From an uncultured Candidatus Micrarchaeota archaeon (lineage in GTDB: Archaea > Micrarchaeota > Micrarchaeia > Burarchaeales > Fermentimicrarchaeaceae), in contig CAIXRF010000077.1 of NCBI GenBank assembly GCA_903921825.1, positions 1 to 29,332 of the forward strand: a stretch of DNA of 29,332 nucleotides, read 5' to 3'. This document shows, piece after piece, positions 7,417 to 29,332 of this stretch. The notes beneath the pieces were generated by a model. That model made no database searches. It saw only the letters and a program-made list of their open reading frames with translations, and had not been told where the DNA came from. A program made the position numbers and the translations under genes. Each line of letters starts with the position of its first letter. Positions within the stretch are counted from its first letter, which is position 1.

Positions 7417-8736
7417 ATGAGGTCTATTATATTCGCTCTCGCCCTTGCGCTGCTCGTTTCAAGCGTTTTTGCAAAGCCGCCTGAGCTCCAGGCGCTTGCC
7501 TCCGTGACATCATTCGAGGGATGGAACTGCAATCCCACGGGCGGGCCATACACGTTCACCGCAACAATCTACATCGCCAACCCCTACAACGGCACGATGA
7601 CGGTAAATTACACCTATTACGATTACTATGCGGGAAGGGAAACGGATGGCGGCCGCGTGTGCATGATTCAGGCGAACAACGAGGACCACTGCTCGTTCAC
7701 AATCCCCGTCACGCTGGGCGGGGAGGCCGCGGGCAACGCGAGCATGTCCGTGAAGCTATTTGCGTCGATAGACGGGGTCAGCGAGCAGCCGGAGAAGCGC
7801 ATCGACTACTCGTTCACGCATGCGCCCGCATCCACGGAAACGAACTCCCTCGCGAGCATAGCCGCGACGCAGGCAAGGCTCGATGGGGAAAACGTCGCCC
7901 TCTCGTCCGCGTGCACCGCGAACGGCGTGTGCTGCGGGATGGCTGGGCCGCAGGAGAAGCTCTCCGCGGCTGGTAGCAGCCTTGCGCTCGCCAGGGAGCT
8001 TGTGAGGCAGTGCAAGTTCAGCGACGCGACCACTACAACCGCCGCAGCCTCCGCGGACATCAACGGTGCCAACTCGACTTACCATTCCACGTTCAGGCAG
8101 TGCCAGTCAGCCCTGAACAACTACGCGTTTGCATATGGCAACCTCACGCGCGCGAACGAGACGCTGCTTAAGCGCGCGGCATGCGGGATGAACGTTTCGG
8201 CCTCCCGCACGGAGCTCGCAAACTCGGAAAGGCTCCTGGCGCAGGGCGCCGACAGGATAGAGGCCGACGCCTACTCGGACGCGGTGCTTTACCTAGAGCA
8301 GTCGCTTGAGACCACGAACGTCACATTCACTCTTTCGAATGACTGCCCGCTGGCAGGCCTGGGCTCCGCCGGGAACGTTACCGGGCCATCCCAGTCGCAG
8401 ACGCCTCCTCCGCAGCAGGCACCCGGAGAAGACCCGCTGTCAAAGGTGATAGGCGCGCTCGGCTACATAGTGATAGCTGCGATAATCATAGTGGTTGGCG
8501 CGGCAATCTACGTTTCGCTGGGCAAGAGGCACCTCGAAGGGATGATTAGCCGCGGGCCGCGCAGCGGCGCGGAACACCCCGGCGCACCGCCATCGCCAGG
8601 CGCGGAGCCCTCCGAAGAGCTGCCCCCGATTGACCACACCAAGGTGGAAGAGGAGTTCCAGGAGTGGCTGAAGAAGAGCGAAGCCGCGGAAGAAGCCCCA
8701 ACTGAAAAGCACGAGAAGCGCGGCAAGAAGAAATGA
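7417..8736 (+). CDS. Surface protein with a Sec signal peptide, an NxS/T-rich ectodomain, a C-terminal TM anchor, and a Lys/Glu-rich cytoplasmic tail.
   Basis: [19 protein letters not shown] is the signal peptide. ...[29 protein letters not shown] is the TM helix. The tail ...[29 protein letters not shown] is charged. TATA ggctttatatagc is at ~7373-7385 and the RBS aggtga at 7405-7410. Confidence 0.6.
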
Positions 8737-8792
8737 GGCCCGCGGCAAATCCATTTGAGCAGCCGCGGCAAAAACATTCCAAGGTGGTCGAG

Positions 8793-10679
8793 ATGGGTCA
8801 TAAGAACGCATTAGTTGCAGCCATCCTTCTGGTCGTGCTCTTCACGGCACGCGCGCCCGCAGCATCCGCGCCTGGGACGCAGCCGGCCGCTTTCGTAATC
8901 CCGAATTTCGTGGAAAACGGTTCCGCCTGGCATCGTTTCACCGTGAATGTCTCAAATCCCGCGAACGGGACAGCCTACAACTACGTCATAATGATATGGC
9001 CCGAAGCGGCCGCTTGGGAAGACCCGGGCCAGAGCGGATGCAGCGGCGGAGTGGTCGGAGTAAACAACAATAGCATCTACTGGAGAACGAGCAACTGCCC
9101 GCCACTGGGCGGCAGCATGGTCTTCAGCTTCGGCAAGGCGCTCAACCCAGTAAGCCTGAACACCACAAAGACAGTGCAGGTCTATGTGAGCAACGACAGC
9201 GGCGCAACGCTGGTGCCAGTTTCACCAACGAGCGGCTCGCCTGGCATCTGCACCGGCCCGATGAACAACCTGCAGATATGCCAGTACCTGCCCCCTCCCC
9301 CGAAGGTCATCAGCTCCTGCCCATACACAATAAACGCGCTGGCCAACTACACATTGGACGACAACCTCACCGCGGCAAACACGACGTGCATCGGAGTTAT
9401 GAGCGGAGGCAGCGGCTCAATGATAGACTGCAAGGGCCGCACTATAAACGGCACCGGAATGGCATACGGCATCTACCTGAACGACGCGAGTGGAATCCTG
9501 CTGAAGAACTGCACAATTACGCACTTCGAACGCGGAGTCTACCTCCTCAATGCCAGAAACAACACCATCCAGGACAGCTCATTCAACCTGAACGGCATCG
9601 GCGCCTACCTCTCCTCAAGCAACAACAACTCATTCCGCCGCGACAACTTCTCGGCAAACATCAATGACGGCGTACTAGTGCAGACCTCAACTACCAACGT
9701 ATTCGCCACCAATGAAATGTGCGCCGACCCGACCTACGGCGCTTACTGCTCCACGGCGCAGACCGGCGGGAGCAACAAGTGCGACACGGCCAAAGTCTCT
9801 TGCACTGGAATAACGTGCGGGACCGCATGCCCTACGCCCGCGCCCACCCCAACCCCAACTCCAACCCCGACACCGACGCCTACGCCAACTCCAACTCCCA
9901 CGGTGACGCCTACACCCACCGCGACGCCAACTCCAACCCCAACCCCCACACCAACGCCGTCTCCAACACCTACTCCAACTCCTACGCCATCCCCAACTCC
10001 GGCGCCCGGAACAATCACGTCCTGTCCCTACACGATAAGCATGCAGGGAAGCTATGCCCTCAACTCCAACCTGCAATCATCCGGCGGAACGTGCATAGGT
10101 GTAGGGACGGGAGGCAGCGGCTCCACGATTGACTGCAAGGGCCACACAATAAACGGCAGCGGCACAGGCTACGGAATCTACCTCAATGGCGCGGGCAGCA
10201 ACACGGTCAAGAACTGTACAATAGAGCATTTCGACAAGGGCGTCTATTTCCTCAACGCCAGAAACAACACCATCCAGGACAGCAACTTCATCCTCAACAG
10301 CTACGGCGCCTACCTCTCCTCAAACAGCAATGGCAACAGGATAACGAGCTGCGTCATGAATGCCAACGCCTACAAAGGGCTGTTCGTGCAGGCGTCGCGC
10401 GCCAACAACGTGAGCGCCAGTGAGGTTTGCTACAATGGCGACCCAATCTACGACCTCTACTGCTCCGCCGCGCAGGCGGGCGATGGCGGGAACTACTGCA
10501 ACACCACGAGAGCCCGCTGCAGCGGGATAACTTGCGGCTCGCCCTGTCCAGTTGTGACTCCAGCGCCCACCCCATGCATACCTGATGGGGACCCCTGCGG
10601 CGAAATCCCGTGCTGCTCAAGCTACTGCCATGGCGGGCTGGTATGCGGCCCAATGGTAACCCCAACGCCCACACCATAG
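8793..10679 (+). CDS. Secreted modular protein A: N-terminal unknown domain, two Cys-framed PbH1 (parallel beta-helix) modules separated by a long (PT)n linker, and a small Cys-rich C-terminal knot.
   Basis: Signal peptide [26 protein letters not shown]. The module ITSCPYTI...GGSGS(M/T)IDCKG(R/H)TINGTG.GYGIYLN...[34 protein letters not shown]..... occurs twice. The second-module version differs in places. The first module ends in [10 protein letters not shown]...[41 protein letters not shown]. The track start 8733 is replaced by ATG 8793 because the upstream word aaggtggtcgag ATG is shared with the next gene. Confidence 0.8.
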
Positions 10680-10712
10680 CCGATGCTCTGCCCTTTCTTG
10701 GTGCTGAGCGTT

Positions 10713-10733
10713 GCCGCCCTGAAAGCTATTTAA
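10713..10733 (+). promoter_or_regulatory. Conserved promoter block gccgccctgaaagctatttaa (TATA ctatttaa) upstream of modular protein B.
   Basis: The 21-mer matches 14199-14219 at 20 of 21 positions (a/c differs at position 10). It sits 37-44 nt upstream of ATG 10770. Confidence 0.5.
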
Positions 10734-10769
10734 GCAACCACCTGCAAATCAAACTCCAAGGTGGTCGAG

Positions 10770-13700
10770 ATGAATCCTAGGTCCGTTGTAGCGTCTATCC
10801 TGTTTGTCGCACTGTTTGCCGCGTTCGCTGCTGCGGCGCCTCCGGTTACCCACCAGCCGTCGCCAGTATGTTCCCAATACAACGAGACCAGCACAGGCTG
10901 TACGCCATATACCGGGCCACTCCTGAGTGATTCAGACGTCCAGAAAGAAGTCGGTGCCATTAACCAGAAGATAACGGAGCGAAATCTCAACTGGGTTGCA
11001 GGGGACAACTGGGTCGTGCGGCTGCCCGAAGCGGAGAGAACGCGCCTCCTGGGCGCAAAGCTATTTTCCCCGCAGGAAATGGAAGCGGCGGGCGTAAAAC
11101 CACTGTCTTATACTCCGGGCACAACGTTGCCGGTCGCTCTTGACTGGAGGAATAACGGAGGCAACTGGACCACGTCGGTAAAGAACCAAGGTGGATGCGG
11201 CTCGTGCTGGGCCTTTTCCGCGGATGGGGTCGTAGAGTCGCGGATGAACATCGATTTGGGCATCCCGCAATTCAATTATGTCCTTTCCGAGCAGGACCTT
11301 GTTTCCTGCTCCGGTGTAGGAAGCTGCAGTGGCGGCTACGAGGACCTGGCTATTGGCTATATTAATAATACTGGAACCACCAACGAATCCTGTTTCTCGT
11401 ACCAGGCATCCGACGTGTCATGCGGACTGAAATGCGCCAATTGGCAGGACCAGAAGGTGCGTGTAACCAATTATAGCTATGTCGCTGCCGGTGCCAACGC
11501 CATAAAACAGGCACTGAACACCTATGGCCCAGTTACCGTATCCATGCCTGTTTTTTCTGACTTCTTTGACTATTCCGGAGGCATTTATACCAGAACGTCT
11601 GACTATCTTGAGGGCTTCCACGCAATAGACATCGTCGGCTACAACGACACTGGCGGATACTGGATTGTTAAAAACAGCTGGGCTACCACCTGGGGTGAAA
11701 ACGGTTATTTCAGGATGAGCTATTCAGAAGATACAAACTATTCGACTTGGACTTGTTTTACTGTGTATGCCAGCTGTTCTCAGCCAGGCTCCTTTTTCAT
11801 GGACCAGAGCGTTGCCGTCATGAGCACAAACGCGCCAAGCCTGTTCAACTTCGGGTCGGTTTCGGGCTATGTGTTTGACGACCTAGCGCAGGGGATTGCG
11901 AGCGCAATTGTCAACGTGACGAATGCAAGCGGCTCGCCAACGAACCTCACGAATGCAAGCGGTTACTACATAATCGGTGTCGTTCCCGCCGGAACCTTTA
12001 GCATCAGCGCGAGGAAAAATGCCTCTCTTGGCACCAACACAACCACCGTGACCGTGGTTACAAACACCACCACCAATGTCAACTTCACTCTGTATGCGCC
12101 AACTCCGATTCCAACGCCAACCCCCGTGGTAATCAGCAGCTGCCCCTACACAATAAGCGCCCCAGGTGCCTACGTCCTGTCGTCAGACGTCAATTCGGCA
12201 AGTGGCTCGTGCATCGCCATATCCACGGGAGGCAGCGGCTCCACGCTTGACTGCCAGAACCACACAATAAACGGCAGCGGCACAGGCTACGGAATCTACT
12301 TCAACAGCGCAAGCGGCAGCATGGTAAAAAACTGCACTGTGAAGCGCTTCGCGCGCGGAGTCTACCTCTCCAGTGCGCGCAACAACACCATCCAGGACAG
12401 CGCATTCAACTCGAACAACTACGGCGCCTACCTATCCTCAAGCAACAACAACTCATTCCGCCGCGACAACTTCTCGGCGAACACCGCTGACGGCGTCTAT
12501 GTGGCGAGCTCAACTACCAACGTATTCGCCACTAACGAAATGTGCGCCGACCCGACCTACGGCGCTTACTGCTCCACTGCTCAGACAGGCGGGAGCAATA
12601 CCTGCAACTCATCCAAAATCTCTTGCAGCGGAGTAACGTGCGGCTCACCCTGCCCAGGCACGACTCCAACGCCTACACCCACTCCAACTCCAACACCCAC
12701 GGTGACGCCCACACCTACCGTTACGCCAACCCCCACTCCAACTCCGACTCCCGGCCCACCCACGCCCACCCCAACAGCTACCCCCACGCCAACTGCGACT
12801 CCAACTCCAACACCAACTCCAACCCCGACGCCCACCCCCACTCCAACTCCAGCGCCCGGAACAATCACATCCTGCCCATACACGATAAACGCCCCAGGTG
12901 CCTACATCCTAACGTCAAACATCAATTCGGCAAGCGGCACCTGCATTGCAATATCCACAGGAGGCAGCGGCTCCACGCTTGACTGCCAGGGCCACATGAT
13001 AAACGGCAGCGGCACAGGCTACGGCGTCTTCCTCAATAGCGCGGGCAGCAACACAGTCAAGAACTGCACTGTGAAGCACTTCGACAGGGGCATCTACCTT
13101 TCCAACGCCAAAAACAACACCATCCAGGACAGCTCTTTCAACGTAAATGCCTTCGGCGCCTACATCTACACCAACAGCAACAACAACTCTTTCCGCCGCG
13201 ACAATTTCTCAGCTAACACCAACAGAGGCGTCTATGTGATTTCCTCAACTACCAACGTATTCGCCAGCAACGAGATATGCGCCAACCCCACCCAGGACGC
13301 CTACTGCTCGGTGGCGCAGACAGGCGGGAGCAACACCTGCAACGTATCCAAAATCTCTTGCAGCGGAGTAACGTGCGGCTCACCCTGCCCAGGCACGACT
13401 CCAACGCCTACACCCACACCCACTCCAACCCCGACCCCGACGCCTACGCCCACTCCAACGCCCACGCCAACAGTAACACCAACGCCCACGGTTACGCCTA
13501 CGCCTACCGTGACGCCAACTCCGACTCCAACACCGACACCCACGCCAACTCCTACTCCAACCCCAACGCCGTCTCCAACGCCAAGCGGGACGGTCATTAC
13601 AACCTGCCCATACACAATAAGCATCCCAGGCACTTACATCCTCAGCGGAAACCTCAATTCGGCGAGCGGGACGTGCATAGGAATGACATCAGGGGGCAGC

Positions 13701-14141
13701 GGCTCCACGCTTGACTGCCAAAACCACACGATAAACGGCAGCGGCACCGGCTACGGAGTTTACCTAAATAGCGCAGGCAGCAGCACAATCAGGAACTGCA
13801 CAATCGAGCACTTCGACAAGGGCATCTACCTCTCCAACGCCAAGAACAACACCATCCAGGACAGCAACCTCATCGTCAACAACTACGGCGCCTACCTAGT
13901 GGCGAGCAGCAACGGCAACAGGATAACGAGCTGTGTCATGAACGCCAACACCTACAAGGGGCTGTTCGTGCAGACGTCGAGCACCAACAACGTGACCGCC
14001 AGCCAGACTTGTTTCAATGGCGACTCGATGTACGACCTCTATTGCTCCACGGCGCAGAGCGGGAACGGAGGCAACATCTGCACCACTTCGAGGGTTTCCT
14101 GCGGCGGAGTGACATGCAGCAGATCCTGCATCCCCGCCTAG
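10770..14141 (+). CDS. Secreted modular protein B: signal peptide, possible propeptide, papain-like C1A cysteine peptidase, CarbopepD_reg-like beta-sandwich, then three PbH1 modules joined by (PT)n linkers.
   Basis: Signal peptide [24 protein letters not shown]. The peptidase motifs [22 protein letters not shown] (Cys active site), [35 protein letters not shown] (His/Asn) and LSEQDLVSC read like papain itself. A CarbopepD_reg-like stretch (GYVFDD...[34 protein letters not shown]) follows. Then come three ~180-aa modules matching those in genes A and C. The track start 10761 is GTG. ATG 10770 follows the aaggtggtcgag word. Confidence 0.85.
12110..14141 (+). repeat. Three tandem module-plus-linker units (period ~733 bp) with high nucleotide identity. 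The same module recurs in genes A and C.
   Basis: Modules start at ~12131, 12865 and 13597 (atcagcagctgcccctacacaataagc...). Related copies start at 9309, 10017 and 14335. The string ggaggcagcggctccacg(c/a)ttgactgcca recurs at ~10110, 12229, 12961, 13693 and 14437. Confidence 0.75.
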
Positions 14142-14150
14142 CCAAAGCAC

Positions 14151-14172
14151 CTTCTTTTCCTTTTCTTTCCGT
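14151..14172 (+). terminator. T-rich tract after protein B. Candidate terminator.
   Basis: The sequence cttcttttccttttctttcc follows directly after the TAG at 14139-14141. Confidence 0.3.
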
Positions 14173-14198
14173 CTTGGCAGCGGCAGCTTTCCGGCGCG

Positions 14199-14220
14199 GC
14201 CGCCCTGCAAGCTATTTAAA
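14199..14220 (+). promoter_or_regulatory. Conserved promoter block gccgccctgcaagctatttaaa (TATA ctatttaaa) upstream of modular protein C.
   Basis: It matches 10713-10733 at 20 of 21 positions (c/a differs). It sits 34-42 nt upstream of GTG 14254, with a caaggtga word in between. Confidence 0.5.
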
Positions 14221-14253
14221 CTACGTGAGGCAAAAAAGAGTCAAGGTGATTTC

Positions 14254-16062
14254 GTGAGTCCTAGACCCCTGTTTGCGCATGCATTCTTGTTCATCGCACT
14301 TCTTGCGGCTTCCGCTGCAGCACCCGGGATAGCAATCACTTCCTGCCCGCGCACGATAAACGCCCCAGGCACTTACGTCCTCACCTCGGACCTAAACTCT
14401 CCGGGCGGGACGTGCATAGGCGTGGGCGCAGGCGGCAGCGGCTCCACGATTGACTGCCAGGGGCACCTAATCAGGGGCCCCGGCGCTGCGGGCTACGGGC
14501 TCTATCTCAACGGAGCGAGCTACGTTACGGTGCGGAACTGCACATTCCGGAGCTTCGACCGCGGAATATACCTCTCCTCAGCAAGGTACAACACCATTCA
14601 GGACAGCTCTTTCAACGCGAATAATATCGGCGCATACATCTATTACAACAGCAACAACAACACGTTCCTGCGCAGCAACTTCTCGGTGAACCGCGACAAA
14701 GGAGTATACGTATTCACATCCATAGGCACCGTATTCACCACCAATGAAATGTGCGCTGACCCAACCTACGACGCCTACTGCTCATCGGCGCAGACCGGCG
14801 GGAGCAACACTTGCGACACTGCCCTGGTCTCCTGCTCTGGCGTCACGTGCACGCATGCATGCCCAACCCCAGGGCCGACCCCCACGCCGACCGCCACCCC
14901 CACTCCTGTTCCGCCGACGCCCACCCCAACTCCGACTCCCGGCCCACCGACGCCCACCCCCACAGCCACTCCAACGCCCGTTCCGACGCCACCAGCATGT
15001 GCCTCGCCTGGCGGGGTTGTGAGCACCTGCCCATGCACCATCAACGCGAAGTCAAACTACTCCCTAAACCACAGCCTGACCGCCAACGGCACCTGCCTCA
15101 CATTCAACACAGGCGCAAGCAATTCCACGCTTAACTGCAACAACTTCAGCATCACCGGTCAGAACAACGGATACGGAATCCTCATGAACGGCGCCTATTA
15201 CATGAACGTGACGAACTGCAACGTGACCAATTTCACCTACGGCTTCTACCTGAGCGGGGCCAGCAGCAACAACATCCGCGCAAGCAGGGTATACCTGAAC
15301 ATATACGGCTTCTTCCTGAGCTACGCCTCCAACAACAACATCACCAGCAACACCGTCTGCTACAACCCAGTGGACCTCTACTGCGAGGCTTCACCGGGCA
15401 ACGCAGGCAGCGACGTCTACGACCGGAACACCGGGTGCGTGAGCATCACCAAGAGCGCATCCTGCCCGCCAGCCCCAACGCCTACGCCAACTCCCACGCC
15501 TGCGCCCACCCCTACTCCAGGCCCAATCACCATAAACGCATGCCCATTCACCATAAACAGCGCAGGGACATACCGCCTTACCCATGACCTCACAGCGAAC
15601 GGGACGTGCATAGGCATAATGAGCGGAGGAAGCGGCGCAATACTGGACTGCTACGGCTACGCCCTCTTCGGGAACGGCACAGGCTACGGGATTTACATGC
15701 AGACGAACAACGTCCTTGTCACCAATTGCGAAGTCAGCGGCTTCGACCGCGGCATTTACATGAAGAGTTCCAGCAGCAACAACTTTTTAGCAAACCTGCT
15801 CGAGCGCAACAACATCGGTGCCTACCTCTACGGCAGCAACTACAACCACTTCGACAGCAACATATTCGTCTCCAACCGCGACCGGGGGATTTACGTGCTG
15901 ACCTCGAGCAACAACCAGTTTTACAACGGCGAGATATGCTACAACGGAAACAGCAACAACGATGTCTACTGCTCAACTGCCCAGACTGGCGGGCTCAACG
16001 TCTACTGCGACATCTCGCGGATTTCCTGCCCCGGCGTAACCTGCGATGTGGGCTGCCCCTAG
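14254..16062 (+). CDS. Secreted modular protein C: one canonical and two diverged PbH1 modules with (PT)n linkers.
   Basis: Signal peptide MSPRPLFAHAFLFIALLAASAAAPG. Module 1: [44 protein letters not shown]...[24 protein letters not shown]...[41 protein letters not shown]. Later modules (TCPCTINAKSNYSL..., NACPFTINSAGTYRL...) are more diverged but keep the NxS/T-rich beta-helix periodicity and the terminal ...YCSTAQTGG...SCPGVTCDVGCP. GTG start. Confidence 0.8.
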   Translation: MSPRPLFAHAFLFIALLAASAAAPGIAITSCPRTINAPGTYVLTSDLNSPGGTCIGVGAGGSGSTIDCQGHLIRGPGAAGYGLYLNGASYVTVRNCTFRSFDRGIYLSSARYNTIQDSSFNANNIGAYIYYNSNNNTFLRSNFSVNRDKGVYVFTSIGTVFTTNEMCADPTYDAYCSSAQTGGSNTCDTALVSCSGVTCTHACPTPGPTPTPTATPTPVPPTPTPTPTPGPPTPTPTATPTPVPTPPACASPGGVVSTCPCTINAKSNYSLNHSLTANGTCLTFNTGASNSTLNCNNFSITGQNNGYGILMNGAYYMNVTNCNVTNFTYGFYLSGASSNNIRASRVYLNIYGFFLSYASNNNITSNTVCYNPVDLYCEASPGNAGSDVYDRNTGCVSITKSASCPPAPTPTPTPTPAPTPTPGPITINACPFTINSAGTYRLTHDLTANGTCIGIMSGGSGAILDCYGYALFGNGTGYGIYMQTNNVLVTNCEVSGFDRGIYMKSSSSNNFLANLLERNNIGAYLYGSNYNHFDSNIFVSNRDRGIYVLTSSNNQFYNGEICYNGNSNNDVYCSTAQTGGLNVYCDISRISCPGVTCDVGCP

Positions 16063-16151: not shown

Positions 16152-16610
16152 ATGGACGAGGCGAAACTTGAGAAGCTTGCAGACAACCTGGTGCTGCTGA
16201 TGCGGGTATTCCGCATCATGCTGGCGGGCAGCGAGGGCCATGGGCCCAAGATAATGCCGCTGGACCCGCAATACTGGGTCCTTGGCATCCTGCAGCGCGG
16301 CGACCTGCCCATGTCCGAGCTCGGGAGGCGCCTCCACAGGTCCAAGCCGAACATGACCGCAGTGGTTAATAGCCTCATTGCAGACGGCAGGGTGGCAAGG
16401 CGGCCGGACAAGAGCGACCGGCGCATCGTCCGGATATCCATAACGCCGAAAGGGCGCGCGTTCCTGAAAGGGGCGAAGATGGCGGTCAAGGCGAACATGA
16501 AGCGGAACCTCTCGCGCCTGAGCAGCGGGGACCTCGACACCCTTTACTCCTCGCTGGAAGAAGTGAACAGGGTGATTGGCAAGGCGAGCGGTGGTTTGCA
16601 TGGCACCTGA
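16152..16610 (+). CDS. MarR-family winged-helix transcriptional regulator.
   Basis: 152 aa. wHTH: LPMSELGRRLHRSKPNMTAVVNSLIADGRVARRPDKSDRRIVRISITPKGRAFL. It is the first gene of an efflux operon. Confidence 0.85.
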   Translation: MDEAKLEKLADNLVLLMRVFRIMLAGSEGHGPKIMPLDPQYWVLGILQRGDLPMSELGRRLHRSKPNMTAVVNSLIADGRVARRPDKSDRRIVRISITPKGRAFLKGAKMAVKANMKRNLSRLSSGDLDTLYSSLEEVNRVIGKASGGLHGT

Positions 16611-17289
16611 GAAGAGCGCGAAAGTGCATCACGAGGCGCCAGCGGAGAAAAAAGGCGGCCCAGCCGCAGCTCTCGCCGCCATCCGCAACCACCCGCTTCT
16701 TGCAGAGGCGGTCCTCCTTATTGCCATAGTTGCGCTGATAGGAGGATACTTCTATTGGCAGGACATGCAGGGCAAGATATACCTGGAGAAGACAGTGATA
16801 AGCGCGCCGCTCATCTCGCTCGCGCCCCAGGCGCCGGGGCAGATAACCGAGGTCTATGTGAAGGAAGGCGACAGGGTTGCGAGGGGCCAGCGGCTCGCAA
16901 AGGTCGGGGACCAGTACGTCACCGCAAAGACCTCCGGAATAATCGTTTCGGTCAACAATGCGCCAGGGCAGATGGCGACCGCGCAGACGCCGGTCGTGAC
17001 GATGATAGACCCCACGCAGCTGCGCCTCATCGGCCGCGTAGAAGAGGACAAGGGGCTGAGCGACATCCGCCCGGGCCAGCGCGTCGCATTCACCGTTGAT
17101 GCGTTCGGCGCCAAGGAATACGAAGGCGTCGTGGAGTCCATAGCCCAGAGCGCGCACCAGTCTGACGTCGTTTTCAGCATCTCGGACAAGCGGGCGGAGC
17201 AGGAATTCGACGTGAAAGTCTGGTTCGACACCTTCACCTACCCTGAGCTCAAGAACGGCATGTCTGCGAAAATGACTATCTACAAATGA
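16600..17289 (+). CDS. HlyD/EmrA-family membrane fusion (periplasmic adaptor-like) protein.
   Basis: N-terminal TM anchor LLAEAVLLIAIVALIGGYFYW, then a biotin-lipoyl-like and beta-barrel part (LAPQAPGQITEVYVKEGDRVARGQRLAKVGDQY...IDPTQLRLIGRVEEDKGLSDIRPGQRVAFTVDAFG...). ATG 16600 is preferred over the track's TTG 16576 because GGTGG sits 5 nt upstream. It overlaps the marR stop. Confidence 0.78.
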   Translation: MAPEKSAKVHHEAPAEKKGGPAAALAAIRNHPLLAEAVLLIAIVALIGGYFYWQDMQGKIYLEKTVISAPLISLAPQAPGQITEVYVKEGDRVARGQRLAKVGDQYVTAKTSGIIVSVNNAPGQMATAQTPVVTMIDPTQLRLIGRVEEDKGLSDIRPGQRVAFTVDAFGAKEYEGVVESIAQSAHQSDVVFSISDKRAEQEFDVKVWFDTFTYPELKNGMSAKMTIYK

Positions 17290-18773
17290 TGCGCATGGCC
17301 GAACAGAGCGACAATCTCCGTTGGCTGATACTCCTTACTGTCATAATCGGCACATTCATGGGCAGGCTCGACCAGACAATCGTGAACCTCGCCCTGCCAA
17401 AGATAATAAGCGAGTTCTCAATCTCCATCCCGGAGGCGAGCTGGATAGCCACCGCCTACATACTCGCAAACGCGATATTCGTGCCCGTGTGGGGAAAGCT
17501 CGGTGACACGCAGGGAAGGAAGAAGATATACATCCTCGGCTTCGCGATATTCATCTCCGGCTCGGTCCTTGCAGGCCTTGCCTGGAACCTCAGCTCGCTG
17601 CTGGCGTTCCGCGTCATCCAGGCAATCGCCAGCTCCGCCGACTACCCGACCGCAATGGCGATACTCGCGGTCACTTTCAGGCAGGGAAGGGAGCGCGCCG
17701 AGGCGCTCGGCCTGTGGTCCGCCTCCTTCGCCGCGGCCGCGGTGTTCGGCCCGCTCGTCGGAGGCCCGCTGATAGACACGTTCGGCTGGAGGTCGGTGTT
17801 CCTCGTGAACCTGCCCGTCGGGATAATCGGCCTCGCCATGGCGCTCCTCTTCGTGAAGGAATCAACCGGCAGGCCTACCGCGAAGTTCGACCTGTGGGGC
17901 GCAATCACGCTCGGCATCTGCCTTTCCTCTTTCGTCCTGGTCCTGGACCAGGGGCTGGACTGGGGCTGGATGTCAACGAACAGCCTGCTCTGCTACGCAA
18001 CGACGATACTCTTCGGTTACATCTTCTACCAGATAGACACGAACCACCCCGAGCCGATAGTCGACTTCAAGTTCTTCAAGATAAACGCGTTCGTGAATGC
18101 GCTCGTCAACAACGTAGTGGTCTTCATGGGCATGATGGGCGGCCTCTTCATCCTGCCCGTCTTCGTCCAGACCTACCTCGGCTACAACGCGACGCAGACG
18201 GGCTACCTTTTCATGCCCATGGCGTTCAGCATGCTCATCGCGGCGCCGATAGGCTCGAGCCTCGTTGGCAGGGTCCAGCCGAAATACGTTATCGCGTTCA
18301 GCACGCTCATGGCTGCGGCAGGGCTCTACCTGTTCACCGGCCTCGACCCGCGCTCCGGAGTCCTCGACATCATAATCCCCATCATGGTGATGGCTTTCGG
18401 GATGGGCCTCGGCATGCCGCAGCGCACGAACATCATCGCCTCCGCGGTGCCCGAATCGGAAATAGGCATCGCGTCCTCTGTTCTCGCACTGGCAAGGAAC
18501 ATAGCGGGCGCGTTCGGAATCGCGCTCTTCGCAACCATCCTGAAGGAGAGCACTGAGGGCTACGCGCTCGCGCTCTCCCAGAACACGGTCATCAACACGC
18601 TGGACCCGGTGCTGAGGGCGGAAGCGATAGCGCTGATGACCCTGAAGGCGCAGATTCTCGCCTACCACGAGGTCTTCATCGTCTCGTCGGCGATACTCCT
18701 GGTCGCGTCGGCCCTCGCCCTCACCATCCATGTGAGGGAAACGAAGACGGGCAAGGAAGTCTTCGTGGACTAG
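17286..18773 (+). CDS. MFS transporter, DHA2 (EmrB/QacA-like, 14-TMS) drug:H+ antiporter family.
   Basis: ...LILLTVIIGTFMGRLDQTIVNLALPKIISEF...YILANAIFVPVWGKLGDTQGRKKIYILG...AFRVIQAIASSADYPTAMAIL... matches the DHA2 pattern. The length (495 aa) fits 14 TMS. Its ATG overlaps the HlyD stop in an ATGA arrangement. Confidence 0.88.
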   Translation: MMRMAEQSDNLRWLILLTVIIGTFMGRLDQTIVNLALPKIISEFSISIPEASWIATAYILANAIFVPVWGKLGDTQGRKKIYILGFAIFISGSVLAGLAWNLSSLLAFRVIQAIASSADYPTAMAILAVTFRQGRERAEALGLWSASFAAAAVFGPLVGGPLIDTFGWRSVFLVNLPVGIIGLAMALLFVKESTGRPTAKFDLWGAITLGICLSSFVLVLDQGLDWGWMSTNSLLCYATTILFGYIFYQIDTNHPEPIVDFKFFKINAFVNALVNNVVVFMGMMGGLFILPVFVQTYLGYNATQTGYLFMPMAFSMLIAAPIGSSLVGRVQPKYVIAFSTLMAAAGLYLFTGLDPRSGVLDIIIPIMVMAFGMGLGMPQRTNIIASAVPESEIGIASSVLALARNIAGAFGIALFATILKESTEGYALALSQNTVINTLDPVLRAEAIALMTLKAQILAYHEVFIVSSAILLVASALALTIHVRETKTGKEVFVD

Positions 18774-25782: not shown

Positions 25783-26262
25783 TCACGACACTTCCACGTG
25801 GTAGCTTATGTCGCCCACGATGTTGTGCAGTATGCCCGTCCTGTCGTCCGTGTATCCTATGTAGATGGTTCCGCGGTAGAACTCCCCTGCAGCGGGATAG
25901 GTACCGTCCGCCTTCTCGCAGTTCGGGAGCCCGGTGAGGTTCTTGTGCCTGCCGCTCTGCACTATGATCGCGGGACTTACCGTGACGATGTACGGGTCAG
26001 TCTCCTTGGCCGAGCAGCCTATGGACGTCAGCCGTATGTCTCCGCCGCTAGCCTGCCCCAGGTCCAGCTCGAGGACGCCTCCGTCCTTCACTGAATAACC
26101 GTAGCAGGAGAAGCCCCCGGGAAGGACGCACGAGTTCGGCGATGCGGTCTGGGGGTTGAACACGCCCAGCATGAAGAGGACCGCAACTACTACAAGCATG
26201 ATTAGGACTGCCCAACCGTAAGTCATGAGGAATTCCATAGCTGATTGGCCGCGCATGTCCAT
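25783..26262 (-). CDS. Pilin-like protein with a class III signal peptide.
   Basis: [37 protein letters not shown], with Glu at +5, then a ~110-aa globular part. ATG 26262 is preferred: GGAGAGGTG lies 7 nt upstream, and the track's 26268 is TTG. Its stop is 4 nt from the CDP-alcohol transferase start. Confidence 0.8.
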   Translation of the reverse strand: MDMRGQSAMEFLMTYGWAVLIMLVVVAVLFMLGVFNPQTASPNSCVLPGGFSCYGYSVKDGGVLELDLGQASGGDIRLTSIGCSAKETDPYIVTVSPAIIVQSGRHKNLTGLPNCEKADGTYPAAGEFYRGTIYIGYTDDRTGILHNIVGDISYHVEVS

Positions 26263-26300
26263 ATTCAAACACCTCTCCGGAGGTAGTTAAGTGGGCGCAT

Positions 26301-26317: not shown

Positions 26318-28156
26318 TCACATCGGGCATGGAGTGTATGACGGTATTGCGCAGCCCGTCTGCTGGTAAAACGTGTTGTTGCTGCCGATTGTCTGTGTGT
26401 TGCTGCACCAGAGGTCGTTCCACGCTATCCCCCGCATGTTGTAGCAGACATAATCATCCGTTAGATTGACCGTGTTCGTGCCGATGGTCATGTTTACTCC
26501 TGTCGCAAAGTTGATGACGCTGCAGTTCTCGATGGTCATCGGAGCTTTCACGAGTATGCCCGTGCCAAAGTTATCCGTATTGTTTATGAAGTTGCCGCTG
26601 CAGTTCAGCGTCGAGCCTTCCGCCCCAGACTCGAAGTCTATGCACGGGAACGTTCCGCCGTAGTTGTTTATCTCGTGGGTCAGGTAGTAGCTTCCGGCTG
26701 CGCTCACCACCGTTCCGCAGTATGCTATCTCGCCGCCTGGCTCCGGCGTGTGCATGGTGCACGGCGCGGCCCTCATGATTCCGCCGCAGCCCGTGTTCGT
26801 GTCAAACGTGTCATCGCCGGAGTTGCCGCTTCCGCCACCGCAGCTGAAGTCCGTAGGGTTGGAGCAGACCGTGTTGCCCGTTATGTTGTTGCTGCTGCTG
26901 GACACGGCCAATTCAACGCCCATAGCGCTGTTCGACTCGATGGTGTTTCCGGAAACGTTGTTGCCGTTGCTGCTGTAGATCTGGAGGCCATGCCCGCAGG
27001 AGTGGGCGTTCAAGCTAAGCGTGTTCCCAGTAATTGTATTGCCATTGCTGCCGGACTCCATCGAGATGCCATTGCAGTTCGAACTGGCATCGTTGTCCGT
27101 GATGTTGTTGTTGCTTGACCCAGAGAGGTACATGCCAGCGCCCACATGGGCGTCTTCGCTGAGGACGTTGTACTCCAGCGTGTTGTGCGCAATGTTGTTG
27201 CCGTTGGACGCATACAGGTAAATGCCCACCTCAAAATACCTCACGGTGCAGTGGCTGACATTCACATTGCTCATGCCCCATGACAGTATGCCTGCGCCCC
27301 AGTTGGTGTTGCCCGTGATTACGTTGTCATTGCAGTCAAGGGTCGAGCCGGATGCGCCTGGAGTGACGTTTATGCAGCTGCAGTCAAAAGATCCGCTTGG
27401 GCAGCTGCTGCCCCCGGTCAGCGGGCCGCTGAGCGTGTAGTCGCCCTGAACGGTTAGCTCCGAGCCTGCTGGCCATGGCGTGTTCGGGTCGCAGGTGGTG
27501 ATTACCTCACTAATTGGCGTCGGAGTCGGAGTGGGCGTAGGCGTCGGCGTAGGCGTTGGCGTCGGAGTTGGAGTCGGAGTGGGCGTCGGAGTAGGCGTAG
27601 GTGTAGGCGTTGCCGTCGGAGTCACCGTGGGCGGCGGAGTTACTTGCTGCACCGCTATCTCCTCATACTTCAGCGACACATCTGCGGCGACCTGGCGCGT
27701 GAACCCCGTGTCCAGCTCCACGTATTCAACGAACATCTTCCCCTTGAACAGGTTGCCTGCCCTTCCGGTTGCAGTGCTGCCATCCTCACTGTGGCACACC
27801 TTTGAGCCGCTTTGGATGAACGCATGGTCCCCATCCACTATCATGACTGGGCTGTCCAGCGCGTCGCCAGAGCCTAGCACCGGCGAGCCCTCCGCGGTGC
27901 ACCTTATCCTCGTGACGTTTATCTGGTGGCCCGTGGACTGGCCGAAGTCAATCCCGAAATTGCCAGTGGTGTTCAGAAGAGGGCCTTTGCACAGGAAATT
28001 CGCCGGGAAGACGCACGTTGAAGCGAGGGGCGTCCTCGGGTTTATCAGGCCGACCCACAGCAGCATGCCTATCGCCACGAGCATTATCAGAATCGCCCAC
28101 CCGTAGGTGGTCAAGTATTCTATCGCCGACTGCCCGCGCAAAGTTTTTGTCGCCAT
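26318..28156 (-). CDS. Pilin-like (class III signal peptide) protein fused, through a long (PT)n linker, to a parallel beta-helix (PbH1/NosD-like) domain.
   Basis: MATKTLRGQSAIEYLTTYGWAILIMLVAIGMLLWVGLINP, then a ~140-aa pilin-like globule, then [35 protein letters not shown]. After that come GN(T/N)I(T/S)(G/D)N repeats (ITGNTLSLNAHSCGHGLQIYSSNGNNVSGNTIESNSAMGVELAVSSSSNNITGNTV...). RBS GGAGGGGTG upstream. Confidence 0.8.
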   Translation of the reverse strand: MATKTLRGQSAIEYLTTYGWAILIMLVAIGMLLWVGLINPRTPLASTCVFPANFLCKGPLLNTTGNFGIDFGQSTGHQINVTRIRCTAEGSPVLGSGDALDSPVMIVDGDHAFIQSGSKVCHSEDGSTATGRAGNLFKGKMFVEYVELDTGFTRQVAADVSLKYEEIAVQQVTPPPTVTPTATPTPTPTPTPTPTPTPTPTPTPTPTPTPTPTPISEVITTCDPNTPWPAGSELTVQGDYTLSGPLTGGSSCPSGSFDCSCINVTPGASGSTLDCNDNVITGNTNWGAGILSWGMSNVNVSHCTVRYFEVGIYLYASNGNNIAHNTLEYNVLSEDAHVGAGMYLSGSSNNNITDNDASSNCNGISMESGSNGNTITGNTLSLNAHSCGHGLQIYSSNGNNVSGNTIESNSAMGVELAVSSSSNNITGNTVCSNPTDFSCGGGSGNSGDDTFDTNTGCGGIMRAAPCTMHTPEPGGEIAYCGTVVSAAGSYYLTHEINNYGGTFPCIDFESGAEGSTLNCSGNFINNTDNFGTGILVKAPMTIENCSVINFATGVNMTIGTNTVNLTDDYVCYNMRGIAWNDLWCSNTQTIGSNNTFYQQTGCAIPSYTPCPM

Positions 28157-28225: not shown

Positions 28226-28804
28226 CTATGCGTACGTTGGGGTTGGAGTTGGCGGACCCGGGGTGGGCGTTATTGGCGGGGTGGGGGTCGAAATCGGCGT
28301 TGCAGTCGGGGTCGCAGACGCGCTCTCCACGCGGAACGCTATCTCGCCCACGGCCTTGTGCTGGACGTTCGTTTCCTCGTCGGTGTAGAGAACGTAGATG
28401 TGCCCGCTGTAGTATTCGTCCACGTTGGGCGGCGTGGTGCCGTCAGCCTTCGTGCAGTTTGCGTTAAGCGTGATCCTGTCCCCGCTATGAAGCTCCTCAT
28501 TAACCGAGGTATAAGTGGGGGTGTCGTTTTCCGAGCATGCGATCTCATCTATGCTGATGGTATGCCCCATATTCTGCACGAGGACGAGCGTCAGCGCGCC
28601 CCTCACGCTGTCCGAGCCTTCTATCTTGTAGTCCTGGCATGCGAAGCCGGACGGAAGGACGCACACTCTCGGAGAAACGGTCTTGGGGTTGAAGACGCCC
28701 AGGTAGAATAGTATGACGACCACCGCGAGCAGTATCACTATCGCCCAACCGTACGTCATCAGGAACTCTATGGCCGATTGCGCGCGTGATTCATTGCCCC
28801 TCAT
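28226..28804 (-). CDS. Pilin-like protein with a class III signal peptide and a PT-rich C-terminal tail.
   Basis: [40 protein letters not shown] ... C-terminus [29 protein letters not shown]. The globular part aligns with the 25783..26262 protein. Confidence 0.8.
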   Translation of the reverse strand: MRGNESRAQSAIEFLMTYGWAIVILLAVVVILFYLGVFNPKTVSPRVCVLPSGFACQDYKIEGSDSVRGALTLVLVQNMGHTISIDEIACSENDTPTYTSVNEELHSGDRITLNANCTKADGTTPPNVDEYYSGHIYVLYTDEETNVQHKAVGEIAFRVESASATPTATPISTPTPPITPTPGPPTPTPTYA

Positions 28805-28880: not shown

Positions 28881-29332
28881 TTAAGGTCCGCCCCCAGCGG
28901 CTGTGCCCGCGTAGAGACCAAAACTACTCCATGCCAAGGAGTTCACGCCCTCTCCCGGGAAATTATGCCACAGCGACCATGACTCCGGGCCTGAATTCCA
29001 GAAATAGACGTTCCCTCCAGATGTGCCTGCATAAAGATTGCTAGAATACCAAGAAAGGGAGTTCACGCCCTCTCCCGGGAAATTATGCCACAGCGACCAT
29101 GACTCCGGGCCTGAATTCCAGAAATAGACGTTCCCTCCAGATGTGCCTGCATAAACATCACTGTAATACTCAACAACGGAATTTACGCTCTCGCCAGGGA
29201 AATTATGCCACAGCGAAATGGAGTCAGTTCCCGAATTGTAATAGTAGATGTTCCCCGCAGACGTGCCCACGTAAAGATTTCCCGACCCGCCCAGAAGCGC
29301 TATGGCGTTCACGCCCTCTCCCGGGAAATTAT
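28881..29332 (-). CDS. C-terminal part (N-terminus outside the window) of a protein built from ~40-aa tandem repeats, possibly beta-propeller-like.
   Basis: Repeats of YAGTSGGNVYFWNSGPESWSLWHNFPGEGVNSL. The reading frame stays open to the window edge. TAA at 28881-28883. Confidence 0.6.
   Translation of the reverse strand, partial: NFPGEGVNAIALLGGSGNLYVGTSAGNIYYYNSGTDSISLWHNFPGESVNSVVEYYSDVYAGTSGGNVYFWNSGPESWSLWHNFPGEGVNSLSWYSSNLYAGTSGGNVYFWNSGPESWSLWHNFPGEGVNSLAWSSFGLYAGTAAGGGP
28890..29332. repeat. Tandem DNA repeat of 120-bp period with ≥3.5 copies. Two adjacent copies are 100% identical over 97 bp.
   Basis: 28939-29035 equals 29059-29155 exactly. A diverged copy lies at 29179-29275 and another starts at ~29299 and runs off the window. 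Confidence 0.85.

Follow-up and report, generated by a model that had tools for sequence, protein, structure and literature searches.

Three probably secreted archaeal proteins built from short, cysteine-framed beta-helix modules, one of them headed by a papain-family protease

What might an archaeon do with three adjacent genes that carry the same cysteine-framed module in several copies, once behind a protease? The genes, called A, B and C here, lie within a 29,332-nucleotide stretch of DNA (the window) from an uncultured Candidatus Micrarchaeota archaeon (contig CAIXRF010000077.1, assembly GCA_903921825.1). A first-pass annotation, made from the letters alone, had seen in them a possible extracellular degradative or adhesive apparatus of an undescribed kind. 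The analysis presented here favours reading the trio as an expansion, specific to this lineage, of archaeal adhesin-like beta-helix exoproteins; with moderate confidence, A, B and C are taken to be glycan- or surface-binding proteins of this type, B being a tethered zymogen protease. All three co-oriented open reading frames (ORFs) are present where they had been placed:

8793-10679, + strand: gene A, 628 residues, ATG start at 8793
10770-14141, + strand: gene B, 1123 residues, ATG start at 10770
14254-16062, + strand: gene C, 602 residues, GTG start at 14254

To call such products giant, as had been done, is generous for 602-1123 residues. In support of the start codons chosen earlier, each is preceded at a distance of 3-4 nucleotides by a Shine-Dalgarno-like AAGGTG[GA]T, a motif that matches the archaeal anti-Shine-Dalgarno sequence. 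The proteins are laid out as follows, in nucleotide positions on the + strand, where "PT linker" denotes an extended Pro/Thr linker:

8793-8870: A, signal peptide
8871-9302: A, unassigned all-beta N-domain
9303-9833: A, module A1
9834-10007: A, PT linker
10008-10562: A, module A2
10563-10676: A, six-cysteine, knot-like tail
10770-10838: B, signal peptide
10839-11126: B, pro-region
11127-11735: B, Peptidase_C1 domain
11856-12092: B, CarboxypepD_reg-like domain
12126-12659: B, module B1
12660-12857: B, PT linker
12858-13394: B, module B2
13395-13589: B, PT linker
13590-14138: B, module B3
14254-14322: C, signal peptide
14329-14865: C, module C1
14866-15003: C, PT linker
15004-15468: C, short divergent module C2
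15469-15525: C, PT linker
15526-16059: C, module C3

The two or three module copies per protein that had been counted are thus two in A and three each in B and C. They are 155-185 residues long, with pairwise identities of 36-78% in protein and 65-86% in DNA, and this divergence in DNA marks them as old paralogues rather than duplicates made in assembly. (An assembly artefact was ruled out on the same figure, since no module pair exceeds 86% identity in DNA, and on reading frames that stay open over 1.8-3.4 kb.) Resemblance follows position: A1 and B1 are 68% identical, A2 and B3 69%, B1 and B2 78%, and A2 and B3 have in common the feature C.NGD..YDLYC. Because module type tracks position in this way, the sequences suggest that A and B come from one multi-module ancestor whose terminal module both have retained.

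The first-pass annotation had likened the module to a parallel beta-helix, and profile matches and predicted fold agree that it is a right-handed one. A, B and C all match PF13229 (Beta_helix) at 83-105 bits (cut-off 25.9), PF05048 (NosD) at 87-128 bits (cut-off 23.6) and the NCBIfam model TIGR03804 at 38-71 bits (cut-off 19.45); the Pfam E-values for Beta_helix and NosD run from 1e-23 to 6e-37 across the three, those of A being 2.7e-23 and 2.2e-24, respectively. The AlphaFold check that had been proposed was run on B2 with AlphaFold2 (AF2) and a 13-sequence alignment. The resulting model (predicted local distance difference test score, pLDDT, 89; predicted template modelling score, pTM, 0.87) is all-beta with a strand period of about 22 residues. 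Its strand repeats are regular, it has no helix of four or more residues and no evident long insertions, and the space between its Cys-bearing N-cap and C-cap accommodates about 4-5 regular rungs of 22 residues. (Orthology to NosD itself was considered and rejected, because the window has no nos genes and TIGR04247 reaches 38-61 bits where its cut-off is 300.)

Ten cysteine positions frame the module, at 6, 29, 43 and 70 in the N-terminal part and at 141, 150, 161, 168, 173 and 177 in the C-terminal part. The assertion that Cys is invariant at both ends holds for seven of the eight modules of A-C, which have all ten, and fails for C2, which is without Cys161 and Cys173. Both are also jointly absent from D1 and D2, the modules of a fourth gene, D, described below, and this is the sole hint as to how the cysteines pair. 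Ten is an even number, and the modules are probably stabilised by disulfides. C2 (15004-15468) is a distinct short subtype that also opens differently, with CA.G.VV..C.CT. This subtype recurs in a protein of a Micrarchaeota metagenome-assembled genome (MAG; locus L002) and in the protein P0138, so the module subtypes are older than the gene trio.

Columns that never vary across the ten modules of the window contain only Cys, Gly, Tyr, Leu or Phe. In these ten plus three relatives, every charged position varies; Asp42 and Asp91 are conserved only in the six closest modules and are lost in C2, C3, D1 or D2. Because the unit is short, has no obvious long insertions and has no invariant charged residue, the sequences and the B2 model favour a role in binding or as a spacer over one in catalysis.

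The Sec signal assigned to each protein was found in all three, as a single strongly hydrophobic N-terminal segment followed by an Ala-rich c-region, from which A, B and C are predicted to be exported. As had also been said, none has a C-terminal transmembrane (TM) helix or anchor: a second hydrophobic segment is absent from A, B and C, which end in VTPTPTP, SRSCIPA and CDVGCP, respectively. The PT linkers are real, but the 40-70 residues given for them were wrong; the lengths are 58 in A, 66 and 65 in B, and 46 and 19 in C, a range of roughly 20-70. Sequons for N-glycosylation had been called very dense, and the raw count is indeed high, at 23-30 per 1000 residues in A, B and C versus 0-4 in cytoplasmic proteins of the window, which is indirect evidence for a putative N-glycosylation.

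The two ends of A have no counterpart among known profiles. Its N-domain (144 residues, all-beta) has no Pfam match, and the AF2 model obtained from single-sequence input (pLDDT 47) is too low for use. The tail at 10563-10676 (residues 591-628) is a six-cysteine mini-domain with the spacing C-x6-C-x4-CC-x3-C-x5-C, followed by a short PT tail; this C-C-CC-C-C spacing is knottin-like, matches no profile and does not occur in B or C.

The papain-family (C1A) head that had been recognised in B stands on careful alignment, with no sign of degeneracy. Residues 120-322 match Peptidase_C1 (PF00112) with an E-value of 2.6e-51 (175.2 bits, cut-off 20.7), and cathepsins and dipeptidyl peptidase I (DPPI) from the PDB match the head at 1e-35 to 1e-28 in HMMER. 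The catalytic span (11187-11675) contains the following codons:

11187-11189, + strand: Gln140, equivalent to Gln19 of papain
11205-11207, + strand: Cys146, equivalent to Cys25
11619-11621, + strand: His284, equivalent to His159
11673-11675, + strand: Asn302, equivalent to Asn175

In a MAFFT alignment these four are invariant with papain and 14 prokaryotic homologues, and Trp304 is aligned as well (the mapping agrees with the HMMER alignment). The protease is apparently active, as judged by these residues. Upstream of it, the pro-region has no I29 or Propeptide_C1 match in Pfam; residues ~52-119 are conserved with prokaryotic homologues and contain the motif INxxIxxxNLxWxAGxxxxxxLxxEE, a conservation consistent with a pro-region (~95 residues) and with a putative zymogen mechanism. 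The CarboxypepD_reg-like sandwich that had been reported downstream is probable: PF13620 gives an E-value of 2.7e-7 and 31.3 bits, just under its cut-off of 32.3, and the homologous C1 proteins P0370 and P0039 have clear CarboxypepD_reg domains.

Homologues of the B head number 378 in a word-seeded search and 2,067 representatives at E<=1e-30, counts that include matches to the single beta-helix module within the query. The best of them, annotated as 'C1 family peptidase', reach 45-55% identity over the catalytic region. Tails vary widely among the homologues, many of which carry Ig-like, PKD, CarboxypepD_reg or BACON domains. A metagenome scan with the B head gave no close orthologue, the best match being 49% identical in the catalytic domain. 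C1 and beta-helix domains do meet in one protein elsewhere, in P0094 (Anaerolineales), P0096, P0267 (2292 residues, with Big_7 and a cadherin domain), P0269 (2448 residues, with Big_7), L020 and L069; among 80 JGI metagenomic C1 loci, two have beta-helix repeats in the same ORF. In L020, Cys-capped NosD-like modules come right after the C1 domain. The exact tail of B, a CarboxypepD_reg-like domain plus three capped modules on PT linkers of 65-66 residues, was found in no other protein examined. (The L020 frame, on the + strand from 5000, runs for 1732 codons from stop to stop and, besides the C1 peptidase and its pair of Cys-capped NosD-like modules, contains a CPHC thioredoxin-like motif, a polytopic membrane region and a Cys-rich segment; the frame may represent more than one gene or else a remarkable fusion.)

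The module is also found on proteins of a different build. Gene D, outside the trio, encodes a pilin-like N-terminus (RGQSAIEYLTTYGWAILIML), an N-domain of ~150 residues and, beyond a PT linker, two Cys-framed beta-helix modules that have diverged to 29-43% identity with those of A-C; its Pfam E-values are 1.6e-16 for NosD and 4.1e-13 for Beta_helix. D is one of four pilin-like genes in the window that have in common the motif R[GA]QSA[IM]E[FY]L.TYGWA (Gly at -1, Glu at +5), a hydrophobic stretch and then the same ~150-residue N-domain, which has no Pfam match:

532-2307, + strand: pilin-like gene with a tail of TSP3/MopE-type Cys-rich repeats
25783-26268, - strand: pilin-like gene with no tail
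26318-28156, - strand: gene D, 612 residues, with a tail of two beta-helix modules
28226-28804, - strand: pilin-like gene with a PT tail

Multi-module proteins of the Micrarchaeota MAG loci L002-L004, and also of L006, carry this N-domain at their head too. In particular, the ORF at 6680-11977 of L002 encodes 1765 residues, with a pilin-like N-terminus and ~10 abutting Cys-framed modules, and an exhaustive HMMER search gave similar multi-module proteins of 1421-1757 residues (P0252, P0255-P0257). Together with P0136 and P0138, these are the closest relatives of the modules, at 37-51% identity. They share with the trio the Cys pattern of N- and C-cap and the C2-type variant, but they have the pilin-like N-terminus and its N-domain where the trio has a Sec-type signal, their modules usually abut with no PT linkers, and none examined has a protease. 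The largest relative seen in the module family is P0251, of 6361 residues and 161 Cys, with 34 stretches that match the query (best over the module region) and one N-terminal hydrophobic segment only. In L006, a DsbA/thioredoxin-like gene (8690-9442) lies two genes from P0136, which fits extracytoplasmic disulfide formation in these organisms; no DsbA-like gene was recognised in the window.

Scanning 185,579 species-representative genomes with an alignment of the six close modules gave close relatives in one of them, an uncultured Candidatus Micrarchaeota MAG from lake sediment, at three loci. All close multi-module relatives that turned up belong to Micrarchaeota-like metagenome bins, and most have the modules behind a pilin-like N-terminus. 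The typically archaeal housekeeping genes of the window (G+C ~59%) encode geranylgeranyl reductase, archaeal-type phosphopantothenate synthetase, PAP2, CDP-alcohol phosphatidyltransferase and an ERCC4-related helicase. The earlier guess of an episymbiotic archaeon fits this sole genome and these flanking genes. More distantly, searches with a profile connect the module, without a sharp boundary, to hundreds of archaeal proteins annotated as 'parallel beta-helix repeat protein' or 'NosD domain-containing protein' and spread over Woesearchaeota, Aenigmarchaeota, Thermoplasmatales, Bathyarchaeia, Halococcus, ANME-2 and other groups. The Cys frame C...C...LDC...NC of the N-terminal end is seen again in Woesearchaeota and in further relatives, and the modules of relatives differ in their number of rungs. 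Exact-sequence database look-ups of A, B, C and D gave no match, and those proteins of the contig that do have database records are housekeeping ones only. Two sister contigs were found (ERZ1426835, ERZ1426843); one sister contig carries a C orthologue of 591 residues, at the same position beside a MarR gene, and, at its end, a truncated B orthologue. Another sample has a fragment identical to the end of B3.

Taken together, these results are best accommodated as follows. A, B and C would be Sec-exported exoproteins of a Micrarchaeota-like DPANN archaeon, with short capped beta-helix modules strung on extended Pro/Thr linkers. By analogy with the CASH/PbH1 domains of archaeal adhesin-like proteins, the modules would be non-catalytic binding or spacer units for glycans or glycosylated surfaces. 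B would be made as a zymogen with a pro-region of ~95 residues and then activated; with its three C-terminal modules attached to a surface, the protease would stay on or close to it and cut surface or environmental proteins there. Candidates for this surface are the envelope of the cell itself, a host cell and a particle. A role in surface display is argued for by the presence of the same module on pilin-like proteins, both in the window (D) and in relatives of 1400-1765 residues with ~10 modules, and the reading as a whole by the C orthologue and partial B orthologue that are kept at the same position in the sister population. Three points weigh against it. With no cell-anchoring element, A, B and C may simply be released. 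The excess of sequons over composition-preserving shuffles is modest (+2.7, +2.2 and +0.3 standard deviations), and because it is small the sequon density is mostly that of an Asn/Ser/Thr-rich beta-helix composition. Finally, tblastn of the window's housekeeping genes against the related loci retrieved gave no match, and the placement, probably in Micrarchaeota, rests on relatives of the surface proteins and not on marker genes.

A bolder proposal, which we consider unlikely, is that the disulfide-capped mini beta-helix is a bead specific to Micrarchaeota/DPANN and carried on two chassis, type-IV-pilin-like filament subunits and Sec-secreted proteins, so as to form a host-contact toolkit with an envelope-opening B protease. 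Modules borne on pili would grip host surface glycans; B, whose terminal module type is common with A, would dock alongside, and its tethered protease would open the protein envelope of the host. The other explanations rank in the order of a free nutritional protease, catalytic glycanase modules and an S-layer role. That B is a freely released, peptide-scavenging protease in sediment, parked on detrital polymers by modules that work as carbohydrate-binding modules do, with A and C as companion polymer-binding proteins and no part in cell-cell contact, is doubtful, though less so than the toolkit. Free glycanases and proteases typically have PT linkers between their catalytic and binding modules, and the linkers of the trio, its lack of an anchor, the assorted tails of many prokaryotic C1A homologues and the flanking genes, which show no link to symbiosis, all agree with such a nutritional role. 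However, the module on pilin-like, filament-type proteins, here and in relatives, points to cell-surface display, and DPANN archaea are generally host-dependent, according to a preprint (bioRxiv 10.1101/2023.10.27.564410).

Less likely than either is glycan degradation by the modules themselves, as lyases, hydrolases or epimerases of the kind seen in tailspikes, AlgG or PL6, which would make the trio a glycanase-plus-protease battery. Among known structures, the module lies nearest in fold to tailspike depolymerases, to alginate lyases and epimerases, and to GH87, and the same preprint makes a similar proposal for pectin-lyase-like proteins of Nanobdella. The enzymes among these neighbours, however, have 298-757 residues against the module's few regular rungs, and their sequence identity to it is 6-17%; a rhamnogalacturonidase model reaches 21.9 bits against a cut-off of 500, and no other family-specific lyase or hydrolase profile was matched. 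The lack of any invariant acidic or basic residue, and the loss of Asp42 and Asp91 from some modules, likewise speak against catalysis. A structural role in the envelope, in an S-layer or otherwise, is very improbable for A, B and C, even though they are predicted to be secreted, are sequon-rich and Cys-rich, match the Kustd1514 S-layer model weakly and locally (5.7e-8), and have a precedent in bacterial S-layer proteins with a beta-helix (bioRxiv 10.1101/2024.05.28.596244). That match (NF052345) amounts to 30.6 bits against a cut-off of 1400 and is confined to the CarboxypepD_reg region, predicted S-layer proteins of Micrarchaeota are of an MSTP-like beta-sandwich type (same preprint), and a protease head and flexible PT linkers are ill-suited to a lattice. 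Membership of an S-layer family was rejected, as no recognised S-layer domain scores above its cut-off and A, B and C have no membrane or cell anchor.

The features that bear on expression of the trio, and those that surround it, are:

10724-10733, + strand: TATA-like AGCTATTTAA before B
14210-14219, + strand: identical copy before C
7417-8736, + strand: gene upstream of A, encoding a signal peptide, an ectodomain of ~310 residues, one TM helix and a charged cytoplasmic tail
16152-18773, + strand: MarR regulator, HlyD-like barrel-sandwich protein and MFS transporter, with end-to-end overlaps, just 3' of C
28881-29332, - strand: internally repetitive coding sequence at the 3' contig end
40-522: internally repetitive coding sequence at the 5' contig end

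The two exact copies of AGCTATTTAA in the window are those ahead of B and C, at ~35-45 nucleotides from the start, and are putative promoter elements; T-rich tracts lie downstream of A and of B. No TATA-like element was found upstream of A, only the Shine-Dalgarno-like motif. The gene at 7417-8736 has its own TATA-like CTTTATATAG and a Shine-Dalgarno-like AGGTGA and ends 57 nucleotides before A, and the two are probably in one transcript, as judged by this arrangement. Its product, with nine sequons in the ectodomain and the TM helix at about residues 345-370, belongs to no Pfam family and has no homologue among the related loci retrieved; this orphan resembles a type-I membrane glycoprotein and is a candidate membrane partner. 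The MarR, HlyD-like and MFS genes look like an efflux operon, and their order is kept on the sister contig. The 3' contig end has weak WD40/beta-propeller-like matches, and the repeat-rich ORF at the 5' end comes directly before the TSP3/MopE gene; truncation of genes for more surface proteins is probable at both ends.

The attachment of DPANN archaea to their hosts, and the way these are exploited, are poorly understood, and large surface proteins are mostly unannotated. The trio offers concrete candidates, in which a predicted secreted cysteine protease is joined to repeated modules of a binding type. If the modules bind host glycans, it provides a handle on the mechanism of contact; if they do not, it is a further case of domain shuffling in secreted archaeal proteins. 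The short, self-capped and well-predicted unit may also be of use to protein engineers as a minimal beta-helix.

How far, then, does the trio depart from what is known? The term undescribed apparatus, used of it earlier, goes too far: the module grades into annotated archaeal beta-helix/NosD proteins, fusions of C1 and beta-helix domains exist elsewhere, multidomain C1A peptidases are numerous in prokaryotes, including DPANN, though unstudied (Kordis and Turk 2023, PMC10380794), and archaeal adhesin-like proteins with papain domains have been on record since 2010 (PMC2812497). Like B, the prokaryotic multidomain C1A peptidases have a signal peptide, a short, conserved putative pro-region, a C1 domain with Gln/Cys/His/Asn and, C-terminal to it, beta-sandwich or repeat domains that vary from protein to protein. 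The archaeal beta-helix/NosD proteins (PF13229, PF05048, TIGR03804; CASH/PbH1) share with the trio the N-cap C...C...(T/S)LDC.G..I.G...G.GI......(K/R)NC, but most are a single, longer, continuous helix, whereas the trio has units of 155-185 residues, each with its own six-Cys C-cap, on long PT linkers.

Among adhesin-like proteins of Methanobrevibacter ruminantium M1, which are proposed to act in wall turnover and in the association between cells, several carry PF00112 (Leahy et al. 2010, PMC2812497). They and the trio are alike, in function and architecture only, as large, multi-copy, secreted archaeal surface proteins. The M. ruminantium proteins are anchored by an M1-C/Big_1-like domain, pseudomurein-binding repeats (PMBR) or a TM helix; neither Big_1, PMBR nor a C-terminal TM helix is present in the trio, and organism and envelope type differ too. 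The DPANN archaeon Nanobdella aerobiophila has pectin-lyase-like, sequon-rich surface proteins that are proposed to act on the host surface (bioRxiv 10.1101/2023.10.27.564410). They resemble the trio in size (~900-1300 residues), parallel beta-helix repeats and many N-glycosylation sequons; they have one pectin-lyase fold plus Ig-like folds, and the passage on them mentions no protease domain, whereas in the trio there is more than one capped module per protein, PT linkers join the modules, and B has a C1 protease. In sum, the trio combines familiar parts in a new way and does not amount to a system of a new kind; what sets it apart is that short, self-capped helices serve as beads strung on PT linkers, and that pilin-like proteins carry this bead as well.

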